64,000 bases of DNA. Source: a bacterium (GTDB taxonomy: Bacteria; Patescibacteriota; Minisyncoccia; Portnoybacterales; GWB1-42-6). The DNA is taken from positions 111,186 to 175,185 of the forward strand of contig JAZDMV010000023.1 of the NCBI GenBank assembly GCA_043800535.1, read 5' to 3'. This document shows positions 4,990 through 53,632 of this stretch, in pieces. The position numbers were made by a program, and so were the translations under genes. Below the pieces are notes generated by a model. The model made no database searches and was not told the DNA's origin. It was given only the letters and a program-made list of their open reading frames with translations. Position 1 is the stretch's first letter. The number at the start of each line of letters is the position of its first letter.

Positions 4990-6248
4990 TTCTGATTAAG
5001 CAGCTTTAATATTTCTCCGTACAGCAAGGCCGCTGTATTTTTTATATCAAATAAGGTCTTTGCCTTCGCAATATTGTTCTCTCTGAATACTTTCCTTTCT
5101 TCATCGCTCAAATGCCTCGTTTTTTCCAAGGCGTCGGCTATAGCCTGCCTATCGCCCAAAGGCACCAGAAAGCCGTTCTTTCCGTTTTCAATCGCTTCTT
5201 TGATGCCGCCGACGTCATAAGCGACAATCGGCAAACCAATAGACATTGCTTCTTTCATCGCCATGCCCATACACTGACGAATAGTGGTAGCTGTCACGCA
5301 GAAACAATCCATTGCCGAATAAAGCCGCGCCAAAGTTTCTTCAGTTAAGCCCTGAAATATAAATAATGAATCTAAGGGAAAATTCATTTCCTTGGCGTGT
5401 TTCCACATTTCTTCTGATGACCCCATTCCGCACAAAATAATAGCCATTTCTTTTAATTTTTCTGGTGCCAATTTCAATAAGGCCTCAAAAATATGTTCAT
5501 GTCCTTTTCGCATTGTCAGGGCCCCTACTGACATAACTAAAAATTTATCGTCCGGCAAATTAAACTCCTTCCTCGCGGCTCGCTTATCATTGATCATCTG
5601 CCCGTTAAAAATATCAAAATTCACACCGCTGTAAACTATCCTTATTTTGTCTGGATTTATTGAATACTTTCTCGGACCTTCGGTGCAGTGTTCGCTCGGC
5701 GGCACAACAAGGTCAACCCCGTTTACCAAATAGTTCCATAATGCCGCTTCGTCCTTGTATTGAAGCTCTGCATAATTTTCCAAAATGACCGGCAGCTTAT
5801 GTCGTTTTGCGATTTTCAAGGCGACCAGGCTTTGCAGACCGGCAGTCTCTGTAATGATGATGTCAGGCTTGATACTTTTGATGTTCTGATCCAGATATAC
5901 GGCGCGCCCGGCACAATAAAGAAATCTGGCAAAAATAAATTCCCGAGATAATTTCAATTGTGAATATAACGCCTGAATGAATACACCCGGACCGACAAGA
6001 AAATTTTTAAGCACATACCACAATTTATCAATAATGTCCGGCGTCTTTAAAAAATCATAAAAATACTGCGCTCCTGCTTCAAGGTCTTCTTCCATCTCAT
6101 GCTTTTGCCGGATATGGATAAAAACCTGCGCGCCGTAAGTATTCCATATCTTTGCGTGCAGAAGACAGCGTTTAATAATCCCGCCATAGGGCGGTGGCAA
6201 GCTTTCTCCGTTATCGCCGGTGATCAGAATCTTCATCTGATTATGCAT
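4986..6248 (-). CDS. Glycosyltransferase family 4
   Basis: C-terminal GT-B motif MKEAMSIGLPIVAYDVGGIKEAIENGKNGFLV. 420 aa. Confidence 0.8.
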   Translation of the reverse strand: MHNQMKILITGDNGESLPPPYGGIIKRCLLHAKIWNTYGAQVFIHIRQKHEMEEDLEAGAQYFYDFLKTPDIIDKLWYVLKNFLVGPGVFIQALYSQLKLSREFIFARFLYCAGRAVYLDQNIKSIKPDIIITETAGLQSLVALKIAKRHKLPVILENYAELQYKDEAALWNYLVNGVDLVVPPSEHCTEGPRKYSINPDKIRIVYSGVNFDIFNGQMINDKRAARKEFNLPDDKFLVMSVGALTMRKGHEHIFEALLKLAPEKLKEMAIILCGMGSSEEMWKHAKEMNFPLDSLFIFQGLTEETLARLYSAMDCFCVTATTIRQCMGMAMKEAMSIGLPIVAYDVGGIKEAIENGKNGFLVPLGDRQAIADALEKTRHLSDEERKVFRENNIAKAKTLFDIKNTAALLYGEILKLLNQK

Positions 6249-37192: not shown

Positions 37193-40100
37193 TCACTCAA
37201 CCTGTCCGCTGGTATAGTAAACTTGATAATTCTGCGCACCGCCGTAAAAGACGAGACGCAAAATATTCTGAGCGTCTATCACTCCCCTTGCCCACCTGAC
37301 GTAAAACGGAAATTCAAGAATTTTTCTGGGTTGCCGCCACCGGCCACCTTCTCTTTGCAAAACCATATACATTTCATAATTAACTCCGTTGTTGGCACAA
37401 AAAATCAAATACGGCTTACCCGAACTATTCAAAATTAATTCCGGCAAACTTAGAATTTCTGCGGGGTCGCCCAATGAAAAAACTTGCACTGTTGAGGTAG
37501 CAATACCGTCAAATTCTATCATGCGAATCTCGCGAACCCTCCATTCCCAACTAATTAAAAGCTTGCCCTCTTTATTAAATATCATTTCCGGCTTTTCACC
37601 GAGCGACCACACCTCGCTGAAGTTAAAAATTTTCCGTGCTTCGCTCCAGCCAAAACCATCCTGATTATTAAATGCATAATAGATGCCGTCACAAGCCCCA
37701 CTCTGGCAGCGATACCAGACCGCATGCAATTTCCCATTTCCGTCTAAAACTATATTTGGCGTAACGCCATAATCAGAATCAATAATTTTTTCAATAGCCT
37801 CCGCAAACGAACCGTCTGCGCCGAGCTTTCTATAAAGTATTGCCGAAACGTATGAAGTCGTGGAGACTGTGCCTTGCCAAATAATATGAGTGCTGCCAGT
37901 TTGATCAATTACGCCAGACGGCGAAAAATTATTACGGCCGTCTCCGGAAACATTCTGCACCGCCTCCCAAACGCCAGCGTTATAGCGCGAATAAAAAACA
38001 TCAAAACCCGGCGGGCTGCCCCAGGGCCGCGGTTTCACTTCCCCGTCAAAAATGACACTCACATTGTTTTCTCTTATAAAGATTTGCGGCGGATAGCTCC
38101 ACGGACCAAATTCGCTTCCGATGTTTTCAATCTCGCCCCAGCTGCCACCGCTATTTTTATTTGAAACAGCAATAAAAGTATTCTCTGTTGTATAAGCAAA
38201 ATGCCAAATAACCGATGGCCTGCTTTCGCTGTTTAAAACAATCCCCGGCAAAACAGAAGTTGTTGTTGTCGCATTGCCCGAAATTATTTCCGGCTCAGCC
38301 AAAGAGATTGGGAATATTACAGAAGTCGTTGAAGCGACATTACTGAAAACACAATAATCCAAATTATCACAGGCCGCAATCCTGTAATAATAATCTGTTT
38401 CTGATTCTAATGTGGTGTCACGAAAATTTGTCGCGCTAATATTATCTGTGACACTCGTCGTCGCAAATGAATTATCATAAGACCGGATCACTTTATATTT
38501 TTCCAGGCCCGGCAGGGCGCTCGCTGTCCATTCAAGCAAAGTTGATGTCGCGGTTGTTTCTTTGACGGGATAAAGATAGAAAAATTCCAAATTGAAAACA
38601 CTGTTTTGGGATTTTGGAGTACCATTTATTGCCCGGCCGTCCGCGTTAATGCCCGAACGCGTGCTGGTGCTATTACTTTTCCAATTCCCAGGCACATCCC
38701 AGGCCAAATAAGGATTTACGCGTTCCATGCTCAAGTAGTGCGGGCCAGCCGTGCCTGCTGGCCAGCCGATTGAAAAATCAGCCCAATCAATTATCCCGCC
38801 AGTATTATCTATAAGGCGCAAATTTTCTCCAGAGTTTGATAGACCGCTCCCGCCAAAACTATGTGCTAAATCAGCCACTATGTCACTAACCGTGCCATCG
38901 TCTCCGCGTTCAATTAAATAATATGATCTTGGCGCTATCGTATTTTGCAAATTTGCCACAGTGGTCGTGGCGCCTACTACCTCCGCTATTTGCCAACCGG
39001 TTAAATCTATTGTTCCGTCCGTTTTATTATAGAGTTCTATCCACTCGTCAGCCGAAGTCGAAGCGCTTGTCCCTGCCCAGGCAATTTCGTTAATAACGAC
39101 GGGATAAAAATTTATTGACGCGGCAACTTCCTGCCATTCGCCTGCGCTGCTGCTTGCGTTAGTAGCGCGTGCCCGAAAATAATAAATTGTTAAATCCTGC
39201 GACCCCTCAAAAATTTTGCTTTCGCTCGTTGTCGCAATTTCCCAATCCTGCCAAACAATAGCCGAGCTTGAGCCAATTTTGTATTGAACGCTATAGGACG
39301 CAACGTCTGTTGATGAACTATGCCAATTGACGTCAAAACTTCGCGCTGCATTTTTGTAATCCGAAAGCCAAATTGAAATTTCGGGCGGCGAACTGCTATT
39401 TTCATCTGGCTCTTCTGATTCATCTTGCGTTCCTGACTGTTCATCTCCTATTTCATCGGAGCTACTGCTCCGATGAAAAATAGCTCGCTCATGTAGCGGG
39501 CTTGATGTCGCTTTTGGTAAATTTAATTTAAAAATCTGTTCTGAAATTTGCGGTGTTTCTGGTGCAAAAACCTCTTCTGTTATTTGCGGCTGTTGCGGCA
39601 AATTACCGCTAGAATCGGTTTGGATGACATTGGCCGGCATTATTGGTTTTTGCGGAGCAGCTGTTCCGAGAACTAAATTTTTTGACGTCTGCGCTGATGT
39701 TGCGGCCGGCGGCGAACTGACCACCGATGGCTTAGCAACCTGACCCGTATCGCCTTGGGAAACCTGCGTCTGCGTTGAAAAAAACAAAGATGCAAATAAG
39801 CCAGAAACACCATTGTATGTTGTGCCCCAGGCCGACGATATCTGACCAAAAATGTCCTGTATCCCCGGCCAAATTTTTATAAACTCTCCATATGGAGAAA
39901 ATAATGGAGTCAGCTCGCGCGCCGAAAGAATGGCGGTCAAGCCGGTTGTAAACTTAAGCATGCCATTTGAAACATTCGGCGGCGGCTTTAATAAATTTCT
40001 GTCTTTTTCCGCTTTGGCGACTTCTTCGTGAAAAATTCTGATAACCTCCGTTCCGGCTAAGACGGCCTGTTTGGAAAGAAGACGCCAATAGGAGGACAGG

Positions 40101-41011
40101 ACTACTTTTTGGCTCACTAAAATTTCTCCGCTTCTCATGTCTTTTTCTGCCATTATATATTCTTCGCCTTTAGAATCTATTCTATAATATTCCTCAAAAA
40201 TTCCTACAATTTCTTTTCTGTCAGCGATTATTCTTTTATATGCGACGTCATTAATGCTATTAGCGCTAAAAAAATTCTCATTTGAGTATCTGGCAACTTT
40301 CACAAAGCAATCGTCTAAATTTGAACAATAAAAGTTTTCCTGCCGTAAATTTAAATTGTTAATATGCGATAGATCAGTATTCTCTTTTGCCCATTTTTCA
40401 TACGGCTCGCCCGGATCGCCGGCCAGGCCATCAACATGCGTGTCCTGCCGCGTGTGCGCCGGAACTGACATATCTTCTATTAGATGCAGAATATGGCCAA
40501 GCGACTTAAGTGCCTCTTTTTTGTCACCGTTGACGTAATCATAGACAGCTTTCTCAAAAGTCCGGTTGCCTTCGTAGCGCGCGTATTGGCTCTGCAAGCC
40601 CTGGTTATGCAGCCAATCAAGAGCCGAAACAGCACTTTCGGCTGAAAGCCCGATTTCCGACAAAAGCCGCACCATTGCCGGCGAAACACTGCCCAGCCGC
40701 TCGCCCTGCCAGCCAAGACCAGTTGTCGGGTCGTAAAAATGGTTAATCCAGCGTGGCGGTGTATCTTCATTTCGGGCGCCTTCGGCTATCAAGTTGATTT
40801 CCTCGCTGCTTAACGGCCTACCTAATTGGCCATAAATTTCTGCCGACTTTCTAGCTAATGAAGAATGGGTCGGATCCGGCTCATATGCCTGCGCGTAAAA
40901 AAATACAACCGCAAAAACCAACAAAAAAAGCCAAACGCAAAAGCATGGCTTCTTAAATAATGCCCTCCTCATTATTACATAAGCAAAACGTAAATTTTTT
41001 ATTTTGTGCAC
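37193..41011 (-). CDS. Large secreted multidomain protein: N-terminal Zn-dependent phospholipase C-like domain, fibronectin-III-like and lamin-tail (LTD) domains, C-terminal beta-rich repeats
   Basis: N-terminal signal/TM segment. NHFYDP and LHLIEDMSVPAHT match the Zn-PLC signature HxxxDxxxPxH. The LTD motif is NEIAWAGTS...EWIELYN...LTGW...NSGENLRLID. Confidence 0.65.
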   Translation of the reverse strand: MHKIKNLRFAYVIMRRALFKKPCFCVWLFLLVFAVVFFYAQAYEPDPTHSSLARKSAEIYGQLGRPLSSEEINLIAEGARNEDTPPRWINHFYDPTTGLGWQGERLGSVSPAMVRLLSEIGLSAESAVSALDWLHNQGLQSQYARYEGNRTFEKAVYDYVNGDKKEALKSLGHILHLIEDMSVPAHTRQDTHVDGLAGDPGEPYEKWAKENTDLSHINNLNLRQENFYCSNLDDCFVKVARYSNENFFSANSINDVAYKRIIADRKEIVGIFEEYYRIDSKGEEYIMAEKDMRSGEILVSQKVVLSSYWRLLSKQAVLAGTEVIRIFHEEVAKAEKDRNLLKPPPNVSNGMLKFTTGLTAILSARELTPLFSPYGEFIKIWPGIQDIFGQISSAWGTTYNGVSGLFASLFFSTQTQVSQGDTGQVAKPSVVSSPPAATSAQTSKNLVLGTAAPQKPIMPANVIQTDSSGNLPQQPQITEEVFAPETPQISEQIFKLNLPKATSSPLHERAIFHRSSSSDEIGDEQSGTQDESEEPDENSSSPPEISIWLSDYKNAARSFDVNWHSSSTDVASYSVQYKIGSSSAIVWQDWEIATTSESKIFEGSQDLTIYYFRARATNASSSAGEWQEVAASINFYPVVINEIAWAGTSASTSADEWIELYNKTDGTIDLTGWQIAEVVGATTTVANLQNTIAPRSYYLIERGDDGTVSDIVADLAHSFGGSGLSNSGENLRLIDNTGGIIDWADFSIGWPAGTAGPHYLSMERVNPYLAWDVPGNWKSNSTSTRSGINADGRAINGTPKSQNSVFNLEFFYLYPVKETTATSTLLEWTASALPGLEKYKVIRSYDNSFATTSVTDNISATNFRDTTLESETDYYYRIAACDNLDYCVFSNVASTTSVIFPISLAEPEIISGNATTTTSVLPGIVLNSESRPSVIWHFAYTTENTFIAVSNKNSGGSWGEIENIGSEFGPWSYPPQIFIRENNVSVIFDGEVKPRPWGSPPGFDVFYSRYNAGVWEAVQNVSGDGRNNFSPSGVIDQTGSTHIIWQGTVSTTSYVSAILYRKLGADGSFAEAIEKIIDSDYGVTPNIVLDGNGKLHAVWYRCQSGACDGIYYAFNNQDGFGWSEARKIFNFSEVWSLGEKPEMIFNKEGKLLISWEWRVREIRMIEFDGIATSTVQVFSLGDPAEILSLPELILNSSGKPYLIFCANNGVNYEMYMVLQREGGRWRQPRKILEFPFYVRWARGVIDAQNILRLVFYGGAQNYQVYYTSGQVE

Positions 41012-42396: not shown

Positions 42397-44652
42397 CTAG
42401 AGGCCGGAAGCTTTCAGAAACTGATCAACGTAATCTTTTTGCGAGGGGTCGATCTCAACCACTTTCAAAGCCGCTTCTTTCGCCTTGTCTCGCTGTCCGT
42501 CTGCCAGATAACTGTCTGCCAAAGCGGCATAGATGTCCGCGTTTTGCGGCGAGAGCTGCAGGCCTTTCAATAAACAAGAGATGGAACGACCAAGATCGTT
42601 ATTGTTCCGCAGAATCATCCCCAGTCTTAAATAATTGCTGGCGGTCAGGGCGTCAGGCCCGAATCTTTGCTGAATATCGGCGAGCTTCGCTTCGCCGTCC
42701 TGTATCCTGCCAATCGCAAAATACATCAATGCTAAATTCCAATGAGGATCAAGAATTTTATCGTTCAGGGCGATCGCTTTTTTGAAAAGCTCCAGCCCCT
42801 CGTCGATTTTGCCAAGCCGCAGTTTCGTCTCCCCAAGCCCGAAATAGAGAAGTTCTTTTGTCGGGCTAAGTTTTAAGGTGTCAGAAAAAATTTCTTCAGC
42901 GCGCACAAGGCGGCTGGCATCCATTGGCACGGCGGCAAGATTCAATTCACCGATGCTCACGGCATAACGGGCGTCCTGCGGCCTTTCTTTTATATTTTTG
43001 TCGCCTTCCTCAAGCGCCAAACGGACAAAATCATCCACCGGCCCTTTATTCTGATATTTGTCGTAACTAGTCATCAGATTTTTTGCTATGTCAAAAAGCT
43101 GAAGCCGCACCTCAAACCGGCCAAAAGTCCCGTAGCTCAATGCTTTTCTAAAATTAGCGTCAACCGCCTGCAGGCTTTCCTGCTGGGCGGCTAAGGCCTT
43201 TATGCCCCAGATCCCCGCCAAAGCCGGCTTAATGTTCAAAAAATAACCAAAGAAAATAAGAACGACAGCCACTGCCACCTGCAGAAAAACATTTGGCCTG
43301 ATAGGATGCGGAGTCGCGACAGCGCGTTTCTCTGATTTACCAATCCAGTCAATAAACGCCAAGAAAGTAAAAAGTGGCAAATAAGAGTAAATCATATCAA
43401 AAACGAAAAAGTCCTGCGCCAGATATCCAAGCGGCAAGATCGCAAAAAGCGCGGCGTTCAGAAAATCAATTCTTTTTTGTTTATAGGCGCGCCAGATAAT
43501 GACCAGAACCAAACCAAAAATAGAAAGAAAACTCAAAAATCCCAAAAAACCAGTTGTAACAAGCGTGTCAAAAACAATGTTGTGCGCCCGGTCAAACCAG
43601 TTCTCAACCGGATAGAGCTGCGGATCGTAGAATTTATTAAACACCACGTTATAGTTTTCCCAGCCCCAGCCCAAGATCGGCCTCTCCTTGACCCCTTCCC
43701 AGCTCATTCCCCAGGCCAGAAGCCGTGTCTGGGAAGTGGTCTCGCTTGCAGAGATATTTGCCAAACGCCGCAGGGTATAGGAGTTCCGGACCCATCCCGA
43801 ATTTTTGAAAACAAAAACTGATGCGGAAAACAGGACAAAACAAATTAAGATCACGGCAGAAATTCTTTTCAGTTTTTTCCTGATTGTAGCAAAAGCAGGC
43901 GTTTCTTCGACGCTTCTCGGCCAAAAAATCATGGCCACAAGGAACAGAATAAGCGAAGCGCCAAAAGCCAGCAAACCGCCTCTGGTCTGCGTCCAGAAAA
44001 GGATCACAAACGCAAAAAGGAAAGCGGCCGCGTAATAGATCCTGGCCAAATTTCGGCGCCGCTGAAAATACATAAAAACGATGAAAAACAGAAGAAACAA
44101 AAGATAGGCGGCAAAATAAGCACCGTTGCCAAAAGTCGCCGAAATTCTGCCAACACCGGCCAGAAAAAATCCCTGAACTCCCAGTTTTTGGAAAAGACCG
44201 ATAAAGCAAAGCGCCAGGCCAGCTGCGATAAAAAAGTCAAAAACCATCAGCCAGTCCTTTTTGGTCTTAAAAACAGAGCTCAAGATCACAAAAAGCGCAA
44301 AATAATGCAGCATGGTGATAAATCCGGTCATTCTTTCATACGAACTCCAGAAGCTTAGGAAAAAATCAACTCCCAAAACGCCGCTCAAAAAAACAATGAA
44401 CATAAAAACGGCGACCACCCAAAAAAGGCGCGAAAGCCGCGGCCGGAATTCCGGGCGATCAAACATCAAAAGAAGCCAGGCAAAAAAAGCGATTTCAACC
44501 AGAACCTGGAAAAGCGCGGTTTTGGGAAAAACAAAAGGAAAAATAAAAGCGTCGCTGACAAAAAGCGGCGTGAAAAAAGAAGCGATAACGGCCGCCTTAA
44601 CAATAAACAGCAAGATTGAATTTTTTGTCCCATTGGAAATTTGGTTGTTCAT
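42397..44652 (-). CDS. O-antigen ligase (Wzy_C) family membrane protein with C-terminal TPR repeats
   Basis: About 12 TM helices. FWTQTRGGLLAFGASL is the Wzy_C loop motif. The C-terminal roughly 250 aa carry TPR-like repeats (ALNDKILDPHWNLALMYFAIGR...). Confidence 0.7.
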   Translation of the reverse strand: MNNQISNGTKNSILLFIVKAAVIASFFTPLFVSDAFIFPFVFPKTALFQVLVEIAFFAWLLLMFDRPEFRPRLSRLFWVVAVFMFIVFLSGVLGVDFFLSFWSSYERMTGFITMLHYFALFVILSSVFKTKKDWLMVFDFFIAAGLALCFIGLFQKLGVQGFFLAGVGRISATFGNGAYFAAYLLFLLFFIVFMYFQRRRNLARIYYAAAFLFAFVILFWTQTRGGLLAFGASLILFLVAMIFWPRSVEETPAFATIRKKLKRISAVILICFVLFSASVFVFKNSGWVRNSYTLRRLANISASETTSQTRLLAWGMSWEGVKERPILGWGWENYNVVFNKFYDPQLYPVENWFDRAHNIVFDTLVTTGFLGFLSFLSIFGLVLVIIWRAYKQKRIDFLNAALFAILPLGYLAQDFFVFDMIYSYLPLFTFLAFIDWIGKSEKRAVATPHPIRPNVFLQVAVAVVLIFFGYFLNIKPALAGIWGIKALAAQQESLQAVDANFRKALSYGTFGRFEVRLQLFDIAKNLMTSYDKYQNKGPVDDFVRLALEEGDKNIKERPQDARYAVSIGELNLAAVPMDASRLVRAEEIFSDTLKLSPTKELLYFGLGETKLRLGKIDEGLELFKKAIALNDKILDPHWNLALMYFAIGRIQDGEAKLADIQQRFGPDALTASNYLRLGMILRNNNDLGRSISCLLKGLQLSPQNADIYAALADSYLADGQRDKAKEAALKVVEIDPSQKDYVDQFLKASGL

Positions 44653-44802: not shown

Positions 44803-47046
44803 CTATTGCCCCATTTTTTTCCTGACGACTTCAATAAATTTATCCACGGTTTCTTTGGTAGAAGGATTAAGCTCGGCTGATTTTTGCGCTGCTTCAATCG
44901 CCTTTTGGTATTGTCCAGTTTGATAATAAGCGTTGGCCAGAGAGGAATAATAGAGATAGTTGGTTGTGCCGTTCTTTATCACAAGATTAAGCCAGCGAAT
45001 TTCATTCTCTTTGCTTGAAGCCGGCGCAAAAAGCGGCATAAACCTGTCTAAATTTTCCTGGCCCACGTGATGTCCCATATCAATGGCTTTGACAAATGCC
45101 TCTTTGGCATTTTCAAAGTCCTGTTTCTGGAATAGGATCTTTGCCAATTCCCAATAGGAACCGGGGACTTTATCGTTCAGCGCGATCGCTTTTTCAATGA
45201 CACTCTGCGCCGCGTCAAATTTTCCGGCAAACATCAGGTTTTCCATCAAAATATAATAAAGCGTGACGCGGTTGGGGGAGCTGGCGATCGCTTTATCAAT
45301 ATAGATTTTGGCTTCGTCCCTGAAGCGCGTGTCCAGATCAGTGGCATATCGGACGTCAAGCAGTTCGGCCAGCTTATAGTTGTAATAAGTATCGTCCGGC
45401 ACATATCTTAAATTCTGCTTGTGCAGATCAATGGCAAAGTCCAGATCAAATTTCTGGTTGGGGTTTTGGGCCACGGCCGTGTAATAATTATGGATCGCGT
45501 TGGCCGCCACGGTTTTCAGATCCAGGTCCCAGAAAGTGTTATAGGAAACTGATTTTTTCAGATAGCTCATGCCAGCCTGATACGCCTGCTGCTGCTGGCC
45601 TTCATAGGGCTGGAAAAGATAGACCTGGGCCATGACACTGTCTTTGAAGGCCTTATATGGCTTTACGACAAAAAGATTCGTTGAATAGTAAAGACCTGCC
45701 CCAAAAATGATTGCGGCCACAATAACTAAAGCGGGCCGAAATTTTAGCGCCGAAACTTTTTGTGCGCCTGGCTCCTGTTTTTCGTCAGCCCAAAATTTCC
45801 CGACAAAAACTAAGAGTACAGACAAACCAAGCAAGGCGGGCAGAGAGTCAAACAAAAACAGATTCTGGACAAAATACGCGATGACTAGGCCGCCAAAAGC
45901 ACCCAAAAAGACAAAATCCTTGTCTTTTTTGTAGAGCTTGACTACGCAGTAAAAAACGCAGGACAAGAATACAAGATATGTTAGCAGCCCTAAAATTCCG
46001 GTTGCGGCCAGGTGCTCAATTATGACATTGTGCGCTCGGTCAAAATATTCTTCAGCCGCAAAATTATAGTATCTGGCATCAAAATATTTATTGAACGGCT
46101 GGGTAAAATTTTCATATCCCCAGCCAAGCACTGGCTTATCCAAAAACCCCAGCCAACCGGCTTTCCAGGCGATAAGACGGCCTTGGATAGTTGCGTCTCC
46201 GGATGAAAAATGCACGAGCCGATACAAATAGGCACTGTTTTTTATGAAGCCTTGGTTCTGCAGCGCGAAAAACATGCCATACACCGCCACCAAAAAAAGA
46301 AATCCGGCAACCAGGCCCCTGCGCAATTTAGGACTGCCCAAATTTTTGACGATCGCAAAGAAAGCGAAAACAAAACCGACGGCAATTCCCAAAAAAGCAC
46401 CGCGGGTCCCAGTCAGAAAAATAGCCAGGCCGTGAATCGCAAAAACGCCGCCATAAACAACACGCCAGGACCATTTTGAATTTTTCAGGCAGAGATATGC
46501 GGAGAAGAACAAGCCAAAAATAAGATAGGCCGCCAGTTTGGCCGCGTTGCCAAACATGGCAAAAATTCTATTCTCGCCGGCGATGCTGGTCAGCCCAAGT
46601 TTCTGCAAAAGCCCATAGACGGCAACAATAGTGCTGGCCGCCAAAAAAACATTAAGCAAAAAGTTGACTTCTTTTTTTTCACCAAAGATGCTCGTGCCGA
46701 CCAGAAACAAAACAAAGAAATAAAGCATGCCAAACAATCCCGTCATTCTTTCCACGTCCCCCCAGAAACTTAAGAACGGACTGGCGCTAAAAACAGTTGA
46801 AGCCGCCAAAGCCAAAAGATAAAGGCCGAAAGACCCGAGCAAAATGCTGAAGCGCGGCCGTTCTTTTGGAAAAAGCAAAATAAAAACCAGCCAGGCAAAA
46901 AATAAGATGTTGACAACTAGACGGAAAAATAAAGTGCTTGAAGAAACATAAGGGAAAAAAAGATAACGGTCAATCACCAGAGGAGAAAATAAAGAAACAA
47001 AAAATAAAATTTGGAGGATTCGTTTAAAGATATTTTGTTTGGGCAT
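44803..47046 (-). CDS. O-antigen ligase (Wzy_C) family membrane protein with C-terminal TPR repeats (tandem paralog)
   Basis: FLTGTRGAFLGIAVGF is the Wzy_C motif. TPR-like C-terminus (AIALNDKVPGSYWELAKILFQKQDFENAKEAF). Confidence 0.7.
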   Translation of the reverse strand: MPKQNIFKRILQILFFVSLFSPLVIDRYLFFPYVSSSTLFFRLVVNILFFAWLVFILLFPKERPRFSILLGSFGLYLLALAASTVFSASPFLSFWGDVERMTGLFGMLYFFVLFLVGTSIFGEKKEVNFLLNVFLAASTIVAVYGLLQKLGLTSIAGENRIFAMFGNAAKLAAYLIFGLFFSAYLCLKNSKWSWRVVYGGVFAIHGLAIFLTGTRGAFLGIAVGFVFAFFAIVKNLGSPKLRRGLVAGFLFLVAVYGMFFALQNQGFIKNSAYLYRLVHFSSGDATIQGRLIAWKAGWLGFLDKPVLGWGYENFTQPFNKYFDARYYNFAAEEYFDRAHNVIIEHLAATGILGLLTYLVFLSCVFYCVVKLYKKDKDFVFLGAFGGLVIAYFVQNLFLFDSLPALLGLSVLLVFVGKFWADEKQEPGAQKVSALKFRPALVIVAAIIFGAGLYYSTNLFVVKPYKAFKDSVMAQVYLFQPYEGQQQQAYQAGMSYLKKSVSYNTFWDLDLKTVAANAIHNYYTAVAQNPNQKFDLDFAIDLHKQNLRYVPDDTYYNYKLAELLDVRYATDLDTRFRDEAKIYIDKAIASSPNRVTLYYILMENLMFAGKFDAAQSVIEKAIALNDKVPGSYWELAKILFQKQDFENAKEAFVKAIDMGHHVGQENLDRFMPLFAPASSKENEIRWLNLVIKNGTTNYLYYSSLANAYYQTGQYQKAIEAAQKSAELNPSTKETVDKFIEVVRKKMGQ

Positions 47047-47174: not shown

Positions 47175-47528
47175 TTATATTTCGTTATATATTTTTTCTA
47201 CTACATTCTCAATATTTTTCAAAACGTCCAAGTTTGTAAATCGCAAAATGCGTAAATTTAATCTATTCAAAGATTCTTCCCGTTTTTTATCTTCTTCTAT
47301 ATTTTTATTTTCGTAATGCTGTCCCCCATCAATTTCTATCACAAGCCTAGCATCTTTGCAATAAAAATCAGCGATATAATTGTCTATCGGTTTTTGTCTG
47401 TAAAATTGAAAGTCCTTTATCTGCCGCCTTCTTATCTTTGACCATAATAATTTTTCTGCGTCTGTAGAATTTCTACGCAACTGACGGCTTAGTGATTTAA
47501 GATTTTCGCCGTATGAGAAAAATTCCAT
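47175..47528 (-). CDS. DUF559 endonuclease-domain protein (restriction-endonuclease-like fold)
   Basis: ADFYCKDARLVIEIDGGQH is the signature DUF559 motif. 117 aa. Confidence 0.65.
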   Translation of the reverse strand: MEFFSYGENLKSLSRQLRRNSTDAEKLLWSKIRRRQIKDFQFYRQKPIDNYIADFYCKDARLVIEIDGGQHYENKNIEEDKKREESLNRLNLRILRFTNLDVLKNIENVVEKIYNEI

Positions 47529-47606: not shown

Positions 47607-47707
47607 AAATCTCCCCTCGCCCCTCCCTTCGACCCATTCGACTACCGCTCAGGGTGGTGAGCAAAGTTGAACCACAAGCTCAGGACAGACTCTAAAGGAA
47701 GGGAACT
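47607..47707. repeat. Direct-repeat element, right copy flanking DUF559
   Basis: aaatctcccctcgcccctcc ... actctaaaggaagggaact. It matches both ends of the 47080-47139 copy. Confidence 0.45.
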
Positions 47708-47740: not shown

Positions 47741-47784
47741 TTTTAAAAAAAACAACACCCCGCTAGTCACAAGCAAGCGGGGTG
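47741..47784 (-). terminator. Rho-independent terminator of the surface-protein gene
   Basis: caccccgc(13-nt loop)gcggggtg. On the minus strand it is followed by ttgtttttttt. Confidence 0.6.
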
Positions 47785-47834
47785 TTTTGGAAATAGTCGC
47801 TAAAGAGGGACGACTATTTAATCCTTATTAAGTT

Positions 47835-50800
47835 TTACGGAGTAAGAGTGATAGATGGCAATGGCAAACTCTTTACGAGGAAGCCGTTAAACCAGTCAGC
47901 TGAAACACTGCCCGAAGTGCTCACATGAGGTATAACGCTGCGGTCTGACCAGATGAAGTAGTAGAACGTTGAAGCGTCGCCAGTGTTGCTGTCATCCAAT
48001 CCCCAATAAGTACTGGCTGGATAGTTGGCATACAACTTGGTGCGTTCAAGGTTCGTTGTATCTTTGGTCAGAGTTAAGGTCACGCTGTCGGAGCTGGTCG
48101 TGCCCTTGTCAAACAATCTTGGCGTGGCCTTCAGAGTAAACTCTGTGGCCGTTGTGACTGTTTTTTCCGTCGGGAAAGCGACTATCAAGCCCTTGGTCGT
48201 GTCTGCTTCTGTAATACCGCTGTTTCCGGTCGCGTCACCGGTTGTGCCGTCGTCCTTAATCGTGGCTGCAGCCGTAATGTCAGTAGCGCCTTCGTAGAGC
48301 AACCAATAATCCAGTTCCAGGGTGTCCACTGTCGGACCAGCATCAGTCCAGGCCACGTCAAATCCGATCTGTTTCAAAGAAACAGAGCCGCCGGCCGAAG
48401 GAGTGACTGTGAATTTCGCCACTTCGCCTGAAACGTTGTTTGTGATGGTCTTGCCGGACGAACTGGTCAGGGCTAATGTCGGATAGCTCTTATAGACAAC
48501 AACAGCATTGCCTTCGCGGTCAGTGCTTTCATAGGTAGGCGTGCCGTTTGAGTCATAGATATAGAGCGTATCCAGCGTGGTTGAAGCATTCAAGGCCGCG
48601 TTAGTCGCGCCAGTGCCAATTGTGTTAAGCCCGAGCTTAACGGTCAGGGTCTTGGTTGTGTTGGAAGGAATCTGCCAGGACAAACCAGTGGTCGTGGAAA
48701 TACCGCTGCCGTCAACCACTGAGCCACCCGGATTCAGCAGGGTTGCACCGTCGTACAAGAGAACCGAATTGACAACTGCCGCCTGGGTCACGTTGCGGAA
48801 TTTGATAGCAATCTGATTAACGGTGTAAGTGTCGCTGGCTGCCGTTAGATCAAAGTTGGCTGCTTCAATTGTCTGGCCGCCGTAGGCCAGTTGGTCAAGC
48901 GGGGTCTCGGTAGCGGCGGTTGTGAATGAACCACTGCCCCAGGTGATGGTTTGACCCAGAACCTCGCTTGCGTTAGCAGTAGCTCCGGAGTTTGCGGCTG
49001 TGCCGCCAACTGCGGTTCTGATGCCTGTAGTGCCTGAAATTGTGGTGTTGGTGGTGCAGTAGAGCGCAATAGGAATCGTGGCGCCGGGCTGCAACGTATA
49101 GCTAACTGAAAAGCTCTCTGAAGTTGAAGAGGTGAGTGTGCTCTTGAGCGACGTTGTCTTGTCAGCGTAGGTGTAGTAACAATTTGACAGGTCAGCGACG
49201 CCAAGGATTGAGTTCTCCGCGTCCTCAAAGTCAGGCGATATGCTTGTCAGATTGACCGGTTCGGTTGTCCCGGACGTCAGCCGCCATTCGCCCAATTTAA
49301 AGGCGGTCTTTGGCGGAACTGCGGTTTGACTGGTATAGCCGGTGTATTTAACTATGGTTATGGTCCCCTCTTTAACGGTCAAAACGTTGCCTGATTTTAT
49401 CGTGGCGGGAGAAACAAAATAAGTGCCGGAGACCGTTCTCTGCGCATTACTGACTGCGCTTGCAAGAACATCGCCGCGCACTTGCCAGTCAGCTACCACC
49501 TGGTTTGTTCCATCGTTGTCATAAATGTCCATTCTGATCTCTAAAACTCTATCAGTGCCAGGAGTGACAACTAAGGAAGAACCAAGAGAAAAGCGGGTAT
49601 ACTGGGCTGTCACATCATTGTCAGATGAGATAGATTGTGTGCTGCCGACCTGAATGCCGTCAGCGAACAAAGCGCCGTTCCGCCATGTGACTGCATCGGT
49701 ATTGGCTGTAGCCGAAGAAGTATAGATCGCAATATCAAGCGACTCAATCTTAATCGGTTCGCCCAGCGCCTTTAAGTCAAATTTAGCTATGGTAGCGCTG
49801 CTGCCGCCATTGGTAACATTGCCCGAAGGCGAAGTAGTTGCCTTGGATATCGTCAAACTGCCGGCCGCAATGGTTTGGGCAGTTGAGCTCTGGGCAGAAA
49901 ATGTGGTGCTAGCTGCCTGAACGAGAATTGTTGAGGCATATTCACTATCAGTGAAAATAACATCTGCCGCGTATCTCAATGACAAGCTAGTGGTTCTGGT
50001 TGAACCACCAACGATATCTACCAAAACTTTGAACTCGCGGGCGCCTGTCTGCAGTGTCTTGGGCGAGCTGGTTATGTCAAAAGCGACATATCCATTAGCA
50101 TCCATGGCCGCCACAGTTGAACCAACCTGAACGCCGTCAACTAACAGCTTGAAATTGGCCAGGTCGGCTGTATTAACCGAACCGATCTGTCTGAATGTTA
50201 TGTATTTCAGATAAACGGATCTGGTTGAAATAGTGACTGTGCTCTGCCAGAGATTGAATTCGGTCTGAGGGCTTGGCGTGCCATCAGATGAAGGCGTCAC
50301 TGTGCCAAAACTGACTCCGCCCAAAGTACCAGACGCGATAGTGTGGAAATTACCGTTGATCGGGAAACTGCCGGTGACAGTCGCGCCATCGGTCACGATA
50401 TAGCTGCTTTCAAACATGCTGACTCCAATCGTTTCGCCGGCTGTGCCGTCAATGTCTGATTTGACAGTGATGGTTTTGGTTGTGCCGGCAGGGATCGTGA
50501 AGATTCCCGTGCTGTTATTCCAAGATACGATGTTTGAGCTAACCGAAGCGTTGTCGGTTATTCTGGTGTTACCATCGTAAAGATAAACATTCGTCAAAGT
50601 GGCATCAGCTGAAACGCCGATTCTCTTGACCTTGAAGGTGGTCACCTTAACAGCGCCGTTTGAAGGAGCCGTCAAATTGAACGAAGCCAAAGGATTAGCC
50701 GCCGAACCGTCAACAATGGTTGTTGATGGCTGGGTGTTTGGAGACAGGGTCACTTGTAAAGTGGTGCCCGGCGTTATGCCGCTGCCTTCAGTTGACAAAG

Positions 50801-51308
50801 TGCAAGTCGTGTCATCGTTGCTTGCAGTGTAGCTGTCACGGTCAACAGTGTTAATCTGATAAACTGAATCCCAATCAAACAAGGCGTTGCTTGAATTGCA
50901 AGCAGTAAACTGTTCTGCGGTCATGTTGACCCAGTGTTTGCCGCCATTATCGCTATTGGCAACTGGGGCCAGGTTATAGACCTTTGGGTCGCCAACGGCT
51001 CTCACCAAAGTGGAAATCGTGAACTGATCCATTGTCGCCTGGCTGACGGTCTTGACATTGCTCCAGCTAAGATGTCCGTAGCTATTGAAAACGCTCGGGC
51101 TAAGAATCAATCTCTTGAAAGCCTTGGCTCCGAGATATTTTGCAATATAAACATCAGGACTGGCGGCCGTCTTTATAAGCGCGCCCTCGGCGATGTTGTC
51201 AATGACAGCGTTAGCCATCATTGGAGCAAGCATACCGATACCGCTCATAGTCGCGATCGTTGCGATAGAAGCCGTAACAGAAATAAGTTTTTGAATTTTT
51301 TTACTCAT
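47835..51308 (-). CDS. Large (1157 aa) Thr/Ser/Gly-rich secreted cell-surface protein with repeated beta-rich (Ig-like) regions; candidate S-layer/adhesin-like glycoprotein
   Basis: N-terminal signal peptide (ISVTASIATIATMSGIGMLAPMMANA). Extreme T/S/G/A/V-rich composition with repeated TxTV-type beta-strand patterns. Its own promoter, leader and terminator. Confidence 0.6.
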   Translation of the reverse strand: MSKKIQKLISVTASIATIATMSGIGMLAPMMANAVIDNIAEGALIKTAASPDVYIAKYLGAKAFKRLILSPSVFNSYGHLSWSNVKTVSQATMDQFTISTLVRAVGDPKVYNLAPVANSDNGGKHWVNMTAEQFTACNSSNALFDWDSVYQINTVDRDSYTASNDDTTCTLSTEGSGITPGTTLQVTLSPNTQPSTTIVDGSAANPLASFNLTAPSNGAVKVTTFKVKRIGVSADATLTNVYLYDGNTRITDNASVSSNIVSWNNSTGIFTIPAGTTKTITVKSDIDGTAGETIGVSMFESSYIVTDGATVTGSFPINGNFHTIASGTLGGVSFGTVTPSSDGTPSPQTEFNLWQSTVTISTRSVYLKYITFRQIGSVNTADLANFKLLVDGVQVGSTVAAMDANGYVAFDITSSPKTLQTGAREFKVLVDIVGGSTRTTSLSLRYAADVIFTDSEYASTILVQAASTTFSAQSSTAQTIAAGSLTISKATTSPSGNVTNGGSSATIAKFDLKALGEPIKIESLDIAIYTSSATANTDAVTWRNGALFADGIQVGSTQSISSDNDVTAQYTRFSLGSSLVVTPGTDRVLEIRMDIYDNDGTNQVVADWQVRGDVLASAVSNAQRTVSGTYFVSPATIKSGNVLTVKEGTITIVKYTGYTSQTAVPPKTAFKLGEWRLTSGTTEPVNLTSISPDFEDAENSILGVADLSNCYYTYADKTTSLKSTLTSSTSESFSVSYTLQPGATIPIALYCTTNTTISGTTGIRTAVGGTAANSGATANASEVLGQTITWGSGSFTTAATETPLDQLAYGGQTIEAANFDLTAASDTYTVNQIAIKFRNVTQAAVVNSVLLYDGATLLNPGGSVVDGSGISTTTGLSWQIPSNTTKTLTVKLGLNTIGTGATNAALNASTTLDTLYIYDSNGTPTYESTDREGNAVVVYKSYPTLALTSSSGKTITNNVSGEVAKFTVTPSAGGSVSLKQIGFDVAWTDAGPTVDTLELDYWLLYEGATDITAAATIKDDGTTGDATGNSGITEADTTKGLIVAFPTEKTVTTATEFTLKATPRLFDKGTTSSDSVTLTLTKDTTNLERTKLYANYPASTYWGLDDSNTGDASTFYYFIWSDRSVIPHVSTSGSVSADWFNGFLVKSLPLPSITLTP

Positions 51309-51667
51309 TTTTTATTTTAATTTTGATCACTCCGGGATTGATTTTCGAAAATCAAGCCAGGAGTTTGTTGAGATGTTTTAAAGGAAGTCAAACTTCCCAA
51401 ACCTTTCGGTTTTATTTAAGCGACTGCTTCGACATCGCAGTCTACTCTCCCCCCGCTTTAATAAGCGAGGTGTCCTCGAGGTTGTCCTTACACCCCCCCT
51501 ATTTCTTTACGGGGGTAACATCTCTTTTTTACTATCCGGCTATGCCTGGAGTTCTACTCCGGCCAGCCGAACGGATTATTTTTCTGTCTTTCTCAAAAAT
51601 AAAACAAGAACAAACCCCCGGGGAGTTTCACCCCACGGGCTGTCGACCTTTTCCTTGTTTCTTCCAA

Positions 51668-51697
51668 ATTTTAGCTTTTTTAGCATGTAATTGTCAA
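51668..51697 (-). promoter_or_regulatory. Sigma70-like promoter for the surface-protein gene, giving a roughly 350-nt leader
   Basis: Minus strand reads TTGACA, a 17-nt spacer (attacatgctaaaaaag), then CTAAAAT. Confidence 0.5.
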
Positions 51698-51764
51698 ATT
51701 TTTACCTGTGGATAAAAAAAACGGTTTTATATGCCAACCACACCTTTTAACCTTAATTTTCCGC

Positions 51765-52934
51765 CTAAAAAGTCGTTACCTGGATAGGAGCCGGCGGGAT
51801 GGTTAACGGCAATTCAATGTATGAGCTGGTAGAAGTCGCACTCGGCAAGGCATTTTCCGTGCTGGAAGCGTTTTTCTTATCGGAAACCGGCTCGGCCGCT
51901 TTATCAGCATCAGAACCAGCCGCTGGCGTGGCATTCCCGCTTTCTACTATCTTTTCAGCGTTTTTTACCATTTCGTTGATGGCCTTGATCATCTCCAACG
52001 CCGCGACTGTGTCATTGTTCTGCAAACTCTCTTTTGCCTGGCTGACCGCCTTATCTGATTCATCAAGAATGATTGTCGCGTTTATCGCCAATTTATTGGA
52101 AATCGTTGAACTGGCAACTGACATTTCCAAATTCTTTATTCTCATTTCCGTTTTTTGTATCTTCTCGCCTAAATTGGCAACAATATCTGCCTGGTCTCCG
52201 GCATCGCTTTGTTTACTCATCATCATTTCCAGCGCTTTTGTGCTGGTTTTATCCGCCTCATCAGCCGCTTCGGTTATTTTTTCTGCTAAACTTGGCTTCA
52301 TTTCTGCAGAAAGCGTCAATCTTGCCTGGCCTAACGCATGCTCGGCCTGAACCGCGTTTTTATCTATTTTTTTAGCTACCTCAACCGCTTTTTTTGCGTC
52401 TGTTCCGCTTAATTTTGGCAAATCGTCTTTCGCGGTCAGAAGATACCTCTGCAAATTAGTGACTGCCTGTTCAATCCTCGGCTGCCTTGCCTCAATGGAA
52501 TCACTGGCATTTATCACCCTATTCAACTCATCAAGCCGAGAGGCAATCATTTCGCTCTGAAACTCTGCCTTTCCTTCGGCAGAAGTAGTTGTAAAAAGCC
52601 GGGCTTGTTCAAGCGCGATTTTAACCGAATAAAGGCGGTCGCCGGGCAAACTCTCTTTTGCCATAGTCAATGCGCCTAAGCTGCTGCTAAAAATAAGCAC
52701 AAAAACAACTGTCATTATAGATATTGGCTTTAGAGCAGGCCCGAATACATTTAACTGGCGCAGCCAGGTGAAAAATCCGATTGAATTGGCATTGACTGCC
52801 ATTTTCTGTTCCCGGCCATTCTCAAACATTGAAACCAGATTTTGCCGACAAAAAACCGCCCAATTTTCATCAGGGGTTATTTCCTTTAATTCGCGAAGCC
52901 GTTCTATAAGCTGGTTTTCGGTTATTTTTGTCAT
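51765..52934 (-). CDS. DUF5667-like membrane protein, putative anti-sigma factor partner of the upstream ECF sigma factor
   Basis: N-terminal cytoplasmic segment, one TM helix (ISIMTVVFVLIFSSSLGAL), then a long helical extracytoplasmic domain with a low-complexity tail. It lies immediately downstream of the ECF sigma gene. Confidence 0.45.
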   Translation of the reverse strand: MTKITENQLIERLRELKEITPDENWAVFCRQNLVSMFENGREQKMAVNANSIGFFTWLRQLNVFGPALKPISIMTVVFVLIFSSSLGALTMAKESLPGDRLYSVKIALEQARLFTTTSAEGKAEFQSEMIASRLDELNRVINASDSIEARQPRIEQAVTNLQRYLLTAKDDLPKLSGTDAKKAVEVAKKIDKNAVQAEHALGQARLTLSAEMKPSLAEKITEAADEADKTSTKALEMMMSKQSDAGDQADIVANLGEKIQKTEMRIKNLEMSVASSTISNKLAINATIILDESDKAVSQAKESLQNNDTVAALEMIKAINEMVKNAEKIVESGNATPAAGSDADKAAEPVSDKKNASSTENALPSATSTSSYIELPLTIPPAPIQVTTF

Positions 52935-53104: not shown

Positions 53105-53632
53105 TTACCGATTATTAGCCCTTTTTGCCTCTAAAACGGCCTTTAGAGCCCCTATTGCCCTGGAAAGCGAGGTTCTGACCGCTCCTTCTGATTTACCCCA
53201 AATTTCACAGATTTCAGGCACGCTGAAGTCGTCAATATAGTGCCAGATAATAAGCTCCTGATATTCGTCTTTCAGCTCTCGCAAGCATTCTCTGACCTTA
53301 TCCAATTCCAGGCCTGTTTCCGCGCCACCAATCACTTCTTCCTCTGATTCGCTTAAATCCAATTCGGAAGTCGTTTCCAAAGATATTGGCAATTTGGAAA
53401 CGTTCCGGAAATTATCGGCAATCATATTTCGGCAAATTTGGTAGACCATTGCCGATAAATTTCCAATTTCTTTTCCGCCTTTTATGTACTGCCACATCTT
53501 CATAAAGGCCTCTGCTGATATATCCTGAGCGACTTGTTCCGAGCCAACCCGAAAATAAACATAGCGATAAATCTTCGTTATGCTTTGATCGTAAAATTCA
53601 AGAAATTTTCGTTCATTTTCCGCTAATGTCAT
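53105..53632 (-). CDS. RNA polymerase sigma-70 family ECF sigma factor
   Basis: Region 2 (FYDQSITKIYRYVYFRV...AEAFMKMW). Region 4 HTH (ELIIWHYIDDFSVPEICEIWGKSEGAVRTSLSRA). 175 aa. Confidence 0.8.
   Translation of the reverse strand: MTLAENERKFLEFYDQSITKIYRYVYFRVGSEQVAQDISAEAFMKMWQYIKGGKEIGNLSAMVYQICRNMIADNFRNVSKLPISLETTSELDLSESEEEVIGGAETGLELDKVRECLRELKDEYQELIIWHYIDDFSVPEICEIWGKSEGAVRTSLSRAIGALKAVLEAKRANNR

Follow-up and report, generated by a model that had tools for sequence, protein, structure and literature searches.

In a 64-kb stretch of contig JAZDMV010000023.1 from a Parcubacteria bacterium (Patescibacteria, or candidate phyla radiation, CPR; "the window" denotes this whole stretch), we found that the gene for a 1157-amino-acid surface protein is preceded by a long 5' leader RNA that is a member of a conserved, folded, cis-linked RNA family with exclusive linkage to this gene family. 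This family of structured leader RNAs tied to a Parcubacteria surface-protein gene is undescribed in Rfam and in the literature that we searched, and we regard it as new, though of a general kind that is already known. The best explanation of the data, to which we assign a probability of roughly 55%, is that the leader acts in cis, with a 5' stem that would stabilise the mRNA and with an invariant core and a short GGUCGA motif that would dock a putative partner. The locus as a whole probably serves to express the main secreted surface protein of this bacterium, with the leader probably controlling how much of this coat protein is made. An initial annotation of the same DNA had reported a Thr/Ser-rich surface protein with its own promoter, a structured leader and a terminator, and had read the leader as a set of mRNA-stabilising hairpins; the observation is confirmed and its interpretation partly supported. 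The main elements of the locus are as follows:

47835..51308 (-): surface-protein gene, an open reading frame (ORF) of 1157 aa with an ATG start
51207-51308 (-): signal peptide, residues 1-34, with a KK n-region, a hydrophobic core and A-N-A before residue 35
51309..51662 (-): 5' leader RNA of ~353 nt, defined by fold z-score, conserved blocks and covariation
51668..51697 (-): sigma-70-type promoter, with TTGACA at 51692-51697, an 18-nt spacer and TAAAAT at 51668-51673
51707..51715 (-): TTATCCACA, a 9/9 match to the DnaA-box consensus, 9 nt upstream of the -35 hexamer
47745..47788 (-): intrinsic terminator (stem 47754-47786), an 11-bp G+C-rich stem followed by U8, z = -5.5

Conservation upstream of the gene exceeds that of the protein itself. 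Upstream regions of three homologues (52-63% protein identity) contain perfectly identical blocks, such as AACCTCGAGGACACCTCGCT, ACCGAAAGGTTT and GGAAAAAGGTCGACAG, and between these blocks lie hairpins that differ in sequence while their complementarity is kept. Upon an exact search of a metagenome collection for ACCTCGAGGACACCTCGC, we obtained 102 loci, comprising ~60 chance occurrences in G+C-rich coding DNA and ~39 AT-rich leaders, and the 18-mer ACCUCGAGGACACCUCGC is exact in ~39 leaders from metagenomes. At 34 of the 38 18-mer loci tested, a homologue was detected by tblastn from query residue 1 or 4 onwards, 127-280 nt downstream and with 34-85% identity; at the remaining four, the contigs end too early to test. 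Every testable copy of the 18-mer thus stands ahead of a homologue, which links the leader to this gene family, and its conservation goes far beyond that of the protein. It has the hallmarks of a cis-leader, lying on the same strand and at a fixed place before the orthologous gene, with no terminator found between leader and ATG in a terminator scan.

The leader is strongly folded. Its predicted free energy is -133.7 kcal/mol, compared to -91.0 +/- 5.3 for dinucleotide shuffles (z = -8.0; 0/100 shuffles as good), which bears out the ~350-nt structured leader with stable hairpins that had been annotated. The G+C richness ascribed to it does not hold, with 44% G+C in the leader against a window mean of 43.8% (genome ~44%). 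Within the leader we distinguish the following parts:

51592..51666 (-): 5' domain, a long irregular stem (model R1 and covariation, see below)
51653-51661 with 51601-51609 (-): outer helix of the 5' domain, A-rich 5' strand and U-rich 3' strand
51643-51648 (-): GGUCGA at the 5' bulge of the 5' domain, which holds an invariant GGUCG (motif scan)
51631-51643 with 51610-51623 (-): inner hairpin of the 5' domain with a conserved UGAAAC loop
51534..51576 (-): lineage-variable hairpin between 5' domain and core (minimum-free-energy fold)
51370..51524 (-): central domain, closed by a long-range helix in which GAGAUGUU (51517-51524) pairs with AACAUCUC (51370-51377)
51509-51515 and 51490-51499 (-): central-domain strands CCCCCGU and GGGGGGGUGU, inside the long-range helix
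51465-51482 and 51447-51456 (-): central-domain strands, the invariant ACCUCGAGGACACCUCGC and GCGGGGGGAG, inside the long-range helix
51422-51442, 51400-51411 and 51382-51398 (-): central-domain hairpins, namely one with a UGUCGA loop, ACC-GAAA-GGU and an extra one (consensus fold)
51330..51363 (-): 3' hairpin CUCCUGG...CCCGGAG, 97% of cells paired, with compensatory variants in L001
51309-51329 (-): A-rich stretch without a Shine-Dalgarno sequence, followed by the ATG

Covariation supports this architecture. Six full leaders of the window's own (close) lineage were aligned (A4) to give a consensus of nine helices and 73 pairs, in which 97% of the cells are paired and 16 of the 73 pairs are changed on both sides, with 0/500 shuffles as good and slid controls at 44-54%; 500 shuffles were likewise run for each of the two 5'-domain alignments described below, and the slid controls over all three alignments spanned 36-58% paired. 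The first five letters of the L091 row in A4 are wrong, but they belong to the promoter part and no scored pair includes them. In the long-range helix, the most telling one, three pairs covary, GAGAUGU/ACAUCUC in the window being replaced by GAGGUGU/ACACCUC in its closest relative L091 (85% identical) and by GAAGUGC/GCACUUC in L128, and in the UGUCGA-loop hairpin 4/4 pairs covary. A crude test for the long-range helix in individual leaders yielded P < 0.05 in 5/29, with A+U-rich nulls and imperfect landmark picking weakening the test, and the helix rests on A4 and not on this per-leader search. The 3' hairpin shows more compensatory variants in L002, L003 and the main clade (read by eye), and since no U-tract comes after it, it is not a terminator. 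At the position of the variable hairpin, other lineages carry different hairpins, and leaders of the main clade have an extra outer helix (AAAAAGACCAU with AUGGCUUUUU) as well as many inserted hairpins, reaching up to ~650 nt. A pseudoknot of ACCUC with a downstream AGAGGU is possible.

The 5' domain was also analysed by itself. In the seed alignment A5 (22 main-clade sequences, 25 pairs), 17/25 pairs are changed on both sides, with 0/500 shuffles as good. A covariance model, R1, was built only from these 22 sequences, with the window left out of the seed, and it finds the window's 5' domain at E = 1.9e-8. R1 matches 40 places, which represent every true leader locus with enough upstream DNA, while the ~60 chance loci of high G+C gave no strong match. 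Apart from these places R1 scored only twice, weakly (E ~0.005), elsewhere in L118 and L141; both were rejected as leaders, as what lies there is a terminator-like hairpin in the interval from the sigma gene to the DUF5667 gene. In alignment A6, which was fitted to the covariance model and hence leans towards it, 22/25 pairs covary among 32 distinct sequences, again with 0/500 shuffles as good. RNAalifold returned no structure for a mixed-clade 5' alignment (A3) because of a one-column register shift between clades, which was mended by aligning the clades separately and by the covariance model. The stem begins within ~2 nt of the 5' end as deduced from the -10 hexamer, with the fold pairing nt 2-11, and the main clade behaves likewise.

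In the outer helix, the U-rich tract covaries as a 3' strand with the A-rich 5' end (AAACAAG/CUUGUUU vs AAGCAA/UUGCUU), indicating that selection acts on pairing. This counts against reading the domain as an attenuator, whose hairpin and following UUGUUCUUGUUUUAUUUUU would form an intrinsic terminator after ~70 nt unless a factor bound the GGUCG bulge, with a short RNA as the default product. The terminator scan did flag two sites in the 5' hairpin (51635-51619 and 51628-51612), conservation of the U-rich tract is seen across the close lineage, and GGCUUUUU forms the end of the 5' domain in the main clade; but the main-clade stem beside the U-run is weak and closed by long-range pairing, and no alternative anti-terminator pairing is evident, so we regard attenuation as unlikely. 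A short upstream ORF, ATGTCGAAGCAGTCGCTTAAATAA (MSKQSLK), was also rejected as a candidate element: it is kept in L091, the ATG is missing in L108 and the frame differs in L128 and L001, and the conserved part is the GUCGA hairpin.

Two kinds of insertion were seen in individual leaders. In L119 and L120, a small ORF for a GIY-YIG nuclease (PF01541, E = 3e-18) sits within one of the variable leader hairpins, between the R1 5' domain and the core motif, and looks like a homing-type insertion tolerated by the RNA. In L001 (60-190), ~130 nt with many inverted repeats separate the -10 hexamer from the start of the conserved leader, an insertion missing from the other close relatives.

Neither the window nor 16 homologous loci nor 13 metagenome loci with leaders gave a gathering-score match to any Rfam 15 family, among which are RNase P RNA, tmRNA, 6S, SRP and known riboswitches and leaders, and a search of 51200-51800 at E <= 10 returned chance-level matches only (best E = 0.25, a snoRNA). 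The initial annotation had allowed for the leader being a known housekeeping RNA, and no covariance-model match in Rfam points that way. A divergent RNase P RNA or tmRNA, for which GUGAAA and ACAGAA-like strings might speak, was rejected on the empty Rfam and ARAGORN results, the latter program finding no tRNA or tmRNA. In the literature we found no description of a CPR leader RNA of this kind. It is highly improbable that the RNA is the product of an independent noncoding RNA gene that happens to sit upstream of the surface-protein gene: its 350-650 nt, its complexity and its own promoter resemble those of stand-alone large noncoding RNAs, yet it always lies on the same strand and directly before the same gene family with its core 127-280 nt from the ATG, neither a terminator nor a second promoter-like site separates it from the ATG, and the GIY-YIG and other insertions fall only within variable hairpins. 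The large noncoding RNAs OLE, GOLLD, ROOL and HEARO are comparable in size, structural complexity, lineage restriction and in a biochemistry that is not known, but they are separate genes, whereas the present RNA is fused and exclusively linked to one protein-coding family and has no Rfam similarity.

In the central domain, invariant blocks that are unpaired or lie at junctions are set within covarying helices, and hairpins of variable length sit at helix tips, a pattern typical of aptamers. The domain could thus be imagined as a riboswitch-like sensor for a small molecule (e.g., an envelope or glycan precursor) that alters the 3' hairpin and access to the start region, and would represent a new class, given that no Rfam family matches. 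The sequence AACC is present twice (AACCUCGAGG and AACC-GAAA-GGUU), and the G-rich strands can pair in more than one register, so that alternative pairings are possible. What makes this reading doubtful is the remainder of the leader and its gene: we found no recognisable expression platform and no terminator after the core, no Shine-Dalgarno sequence is available to be sequestered (most window genes being without one), the start region is A-rich and only partly paired with the 3' hairpin ending ~20 nt before the ATG, and the regulated gene encodes a structural protein and not an enzyme or transporter, with no hint of a ligand. The motif common to the class is moreover a short hexamer, which suits a protein better than a ligand pocket. 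The comparison with known riboswitches, T-box and ribosomal-protein leaders is similarly mixed: these too are cis-acting 5' leaders with covarying helices around invariant junctions and varying peripheral stems, but the present RNA has no Rfam match, no identifiable expression platform and no ligand clue, and a structural surface-protein gene lies downstream. Of the 46 window genes examined, most carry nothing that resembles a Shine-Dalgarno sequence over the 20 nt ahead of the start codon and instead show A/U-rich start regions.

The comparison was widened to 80 loci from GTDB species representatives, retrieved via the protein alone and including Uhrbacteria, Staskawiczbacteria, Yanofskybacteria, Kaiserbacteria, Lloydbacteria and others. 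In these 80 loci the 18-mer and the R1 domain were not found; common to them are synteny (genes for an extracytoplasmic function (ECF) sigma factor and DUF5667, and Wzy_C/TPR genes), a sense-strand GGTCGA and TTATCCACA. In 52/76 species, the 400 nt ahead of the ATG contain GGTCGA in sense orientation, with 57 sense vs 9 antisense copies and a density of 1.88 per kb vs a background of 0.16 per kb (12x; Poisson P ~1e-39), while none of ten control words of 5 or 6 nt, some of them resembling Shine-Dalgarno or anti-Shine-Dalgarno sequences, was enriched in leaders. In many lineages GGUCGA lies in a hairpin loop or a 5' bulge, and at least seven consecutive flanking pairs surround 9 of the 57 leader copies vs 7 of 203 background copies. 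A strand-specific hexamer in 1-3 copies, present class-wide, suggests a protein partner. We rejected the reading of GGTCGA as a -10 element or ECF promoter (main-clade GGAAC...CGTC are spaced by ~7 nt, and elsewhere no consistent -35-like element lies 16-17 nt upstream), as well as a DNA palindrome or operator (GGTCGAC occurs in some copies only, and the motif is strand-specific, 57 vs 9).

Long structured leaders extend to species in which the sequence cannot be aligned. For 23 distant species, with the start set 45 nt after TTATCCACA, predicted leaders are 433 nt long in the median, and their z is -4.4 (median) vs -1.6 for matched coding controls (Wilcoxon P = 1e-4), indicating that such leaders are a trait of the whole gene family. 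Uhrbacteria leaders share a module of their own, UUAAUU-CACGAG...AAAGGUCGAG-hairpin...CUCGUAAUUAA, in which a second GGUCG could compete for the same GACC partner. The general arrangement recalls control by CsrA/RsmA, which recognise GGA in leader hairpin loops, in that a short strand-specific motif occurs in 1-3 copies, some of them in loops or bulges; it differs in that the motif is GGUCGA and not A(N)GGA, no CsrA homologue was identified, and presentation in a loop is clear in a subset only.

The control words also bear on a further alternative, modelled on the STAB-SD element, which is reportedly described for Bacillus thuringiensis cryIIIA by Agaisse and Lereclus in 1996. There, a very highly expressed and stable mRNA has a long leader with a Shine-Dalgarno-like purine tract far ahead of the start codon. 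By analogy, the G-rich strands (AAGGGGGGUGG, GCGGGGGGAG) could bind the 30S subunit far upstream of the ATG, blocking exonucleases or loading ribosomes, with CACCUC strands that mimic the 16S 3' end masking them. The likeness extends to a Shine-Dalgarno-like purine tract far upstream in a long leader: AAGGGGGGUG differs from the extended Shine-Dalgarno consensus AAGGAGGUGA by one mismatch (A to G, so that a wobble with the rRNA U is still possible), and GGACACCUCGCUU resembles the 16S 3' end GGAUCACCUCCUU, taken as the general sequence and not from this organism's own 16S. Yet genes in this genome hardly use Shine-Dalgarno sequences, the strands concerned are predicted to be paired, and the leaders of the other 76 species show no excess of Shine-Dalgarno-like or anti-Shine-Dalgarno-like words, which makes this quite unlikely here. 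For the same lack of enrichment, mimicry of this type was rejected as a class-wide feature.

Transcription would start from a near-consensus promoter. The initial annotation had proposed a sigma-70-like promoter for the gene, and this holds, with 11/12 consensus matches and conservation in at least eight orthologous leaders, except that the spacer measures 18 nt and not 17 if the -10 is taken as TAAAAT. It is the best of seven promoter-like sites in a 6-kb scan, though shuffled 6-kb scans average 6.4 such sites and the scan by itself proves little. The call gains its weight because the same promoter recurs in orthologous loci: TTGACA-N17/18-TAnAAT is kept at equal distance from the conserved leader start in L091, L108, L002, L003 and the main clade. 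The transcription start would accordingly fall at ~51661, ~353 nt before the ATG.

Immediately upstream of the promoter, TTATCCACA is present as a single copy within the 64-kb window. Among the species loci, 24/74 have a sense copy in the 700 nt before the ATG and none has an antisense copy, at ~25x background in upstream regions (Poisson P ~4e-25), and in these 24 loci (L018, L021, L029, L030, L034, L047, L052-L055, L057, L064, L070, L071, L073, L075-L083) it invariably lies 30-41 nt upstream of a TATAAT-like hexamer; close-lineage and main-clade loci carry it as well. This conservation suggests that DnaA, or another factor, regulates the surface-protein gene through TTATCCACA. In model bacteria, DnaA-box-dependent promoters include those of dnaA, nrdAB and others. 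The present promoter resembles them in having a perfect 9-mer beside it with conserved position and orientation, and differs in that the box stands alone and that DnaA binding is predicted from sequence only. Our literature search found no report that ties DnaA to a surface-protein gene or pairs the TTATCCACA motif with CPR bacteria. In three Paceibacterota loci (L073, L078 and L081), a second sense-strand TTATCCACA lies just past the end of the surface-protein gene, at ~5990-6070 (+), and may precede another regulated gene.

Taken together, we propose that the mRNA is transcribed from the near-consensus sigma-70 promoter ~353 nt before the ATG, flanked upstream by TTATCCACA; that the 5'-terminal stem would shield it from decay initiated at the 5' end, as in other surface-layer mRNAs; and that the invariant core and the repeated GGUCGA would serve as docking sites for a putative trans-acting partner, most likely a protein, which would set the stability or the translation of one very abundant mRNA. 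Whereas the anatomy, the conservation, the covariation and the exclusive link to the gene family are observed, we infer where transcription begins, that the stem stabilises the mRNA and that a partner binds it. A precedent for the shielding stem is Lactobacillus slpA, in which a stable stem-loop in the 5' untranslated region (UTR) stabilises the transcript (half-life ~15 min) and truncation of the 5' UTR lowers expression (PMC10221546). Shared with such surface-layer (S-layer) mRNAs are a strong promoter, a long 5' UTR, a secreted surface protein that is here probably abundant, and a stem-loop at the predicted 5' end that would stabilise the mRNA while the start region is left exposed. The known cases are stem-loops, though, whereas here we find 350-650 nt with a multi-helix core, 18-20 invariant nt, covariation over ~40 genes and a class-wide hexamer, and stabilisation is in this case presumed. 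We know of no conserved RNA family defined for S-layer 5' UTR stem-loops. The view of the leader as a set of stabilising hairpins thus fits its length and structure, but it is incomplete given the invariant stretches, the long-range helix and the class-wide motif. That 18-20-nt stretches are invariant across proteins of 34-85% identity argues for specific recognition and not for stability alone.

Several points weigh against this proposal. Stabilisation alone needs no 18-20 invariant nt, so the role of a stabiliser may be minor. The start site, the presence of the leader on the mRNA and the abundance of the mRNA are all deduced indirectly, and the partner is hypothetical, with no binding protein identified. 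Codon bias is only mildly raised (effective number of codons, Nc, 49.4 vs a mean of 53.1; 7th lowest of 44), and we dropped it as a proxy of expression because of this weak rank. The aligned leaders are kin, so the shuffle controls make significance look greater than it is, and A6 also leans towards the model to which it was fitted. A simple flanking-stem test around GGUCGA was overall not significant. Finally, the C-rich and G-rich invariant strands never vary and may pair in more than one way; RNAalifold favours C1:G2 enclosing G1:C2b, and the few changes in the flanks also favour C1:G2 (GCCCCC/GGGGGU vs UCCCCC/GGGGGA, and CCCCAUU/AAUGGGG in L167).

The gene product has the character of a secreted structural protein. 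The ORF, its composition and an AlphaFold model bear out the annotated Thr/Ser-rich and beta-rich protein with a signal peptide: Thr accounts for 15.4% and Ser for 11.2% of the 1157 residues (308 in total, 26.6%), compared with ~4% Thr and ~6% Ser in the other proteins of the window, and the protein is acidic (96 D+E vs 68 K+R) with 4 Cys. The model, built with 29 homologues, is all-beta with a mean predicted local distance difference test score of 82.5, and shows a signal peptide, an N-terminal alpha/beta domain and then tandem immunoglobulin (Ig)-like beta-sandwich domains, with residues 1-34 as the sole long low-confidence segment. We found no match among Pfam, NCBIfam or PDB sequences, and Foldseek returned only multi-Ig-domain proteins, namely PrgB Ig-like domains, complement MG domains and integrins. 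There are at least 508 homologues of ~1100-1250 aa, whose named sources are Patescibacteria or unclassified 'bacterium' genomes, and some carry PF01471 (peptidoglycan-binding) in place of the N-terminal domain.

In composition the protein conforms to what is expected of an S-layer protein (secreted, acidic, Cys-poor and rich in Thr/Ser/Ala), although Pfam, NCBIfam, PDB sequence and Foldseek searches gave no S-layer anchoring or lattice domains (SLH, CWB2 and others) and no similarity to solved S-layers. An S-layer identity, top abundance and glycosylation are plausible, being consistent with the protein's composition and signal peptide, with its architecture of Ig-like repeats and with the conserved Wzy_C neighbours described below. 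In a Paceibacteria metatranscriptome, the top-expressed secreted proteins include peptidoglycan-binding and Ig-like folds, and PMX_810_sub_00350, highly expressed and secreted in a Yanofskyibacterium metatranscriptome, is encoded beside a DUF5667 gene (PMC10936435). The latter offers the sole, indirect but suggestive hint about expression of the 1157-aa protein, to which it is likened by neighbour gene and fold type alone.

Downstream of the gene, the annotated strong bidirectional terminator was found to be strong indeed (11-bp stem, U8, z = -5.5), but bidirectional only weakly, with four U on the reverse strand. A second hairpin (AAUAGUCGUC...GACUAUU) lies at 47795-47825 (-), between stop codon and terminator, and another GGTCGA occurs at 47629-47634 (-), in the spacer beyond the terminator. 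The neighbouring genes with recognisable products are:

53105-53632 (-): ECF-type sigma factor (Pfam and NCBIfam matches)
51765-52934 (-): DUF5667 membrane protein (Pfam and NCBIfam matches)
44803-47046 and 42397-44652 (-): two Wzy_C + TPR proteins (PF04932, E = 3e-21)

Upstream of the homologue, an ECF sigma gene is present in at least 27/80 and a DUF5667 gene in at least 34/80 species loci, and both also occur at main-clade locus L141; the DUF5667 membrane protein looks like an anti-sigma factor. Wzy_C/TPR genes lie downstream of the homologue in at least 20 (20-22) of the 80 loci, and in L002. PF04932 is the domain family to which the PglL/PilO protein O-oligosaccharyltransferases belong, and this family identity together with the conserved position makes glycosylation a reasonable idea, with the two Wzy_C + TPR proteins as candidate O-glycosylation ligases. 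Between the surface-protein terminator and these genes lies an ORF for a DUF559 (Vsr-like endonuclease) protein at 47175-47528 (-), which is probably a mobile insertion because no equivalent was found in any of the 80 homologous loci. A few genes downstream, a second very large ORF (37193-41011 (-), 1272 aa) has a hydrophobic N-terminal segment, possibly a signal peptide or membrane anchor, and relatives of this ORF stand upstream of the surface-protein gene in 6/80 loci.

These neighbours invite a wider and more tentative reading, which we consider possible but hold with clearly less confidence than the cis-acting leader itself. The RNA would then be a large (350-650 nt) regulatory RNA of a new class, specific to CPR/Parcubacteria, with the invariant core as a specific receptor for a protein or metabolite and GGUCGA as a class-wide recognition element, and would form, together with the DnaA-box promoter and the ECF sigma/DUF5667 pair, a dedicated circuit that couples surface-layer synthesis to the cell cycle or the state of the envelope.

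Parcubacteria and the CPR make up a large share of bacterial diversity, and their gene regulation and envelope are almost unstudied. The structure of the CPR cell envelope has been described as still unclear (PMC5220378), and our literature search found no regulatory RNA specific to CPR bacteria. Cultured or enriched relatives with metatranscriptomes exist (PMC10936435, PMC12281837), so the predictions at the transcript level are quickly checkable. With its at least 508 homologues and the partner genes conserved beside it, the protein is a widespread candidate for the role of main surface protein, and the locus adds a covariation-backed leader family whose invariant elements are precise enough to mutate or to use as bait. 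Overall, it offers two short, testable cis-elements that are common to the class, GGUCGA in the RNA and TTATCCACA at the promoter.

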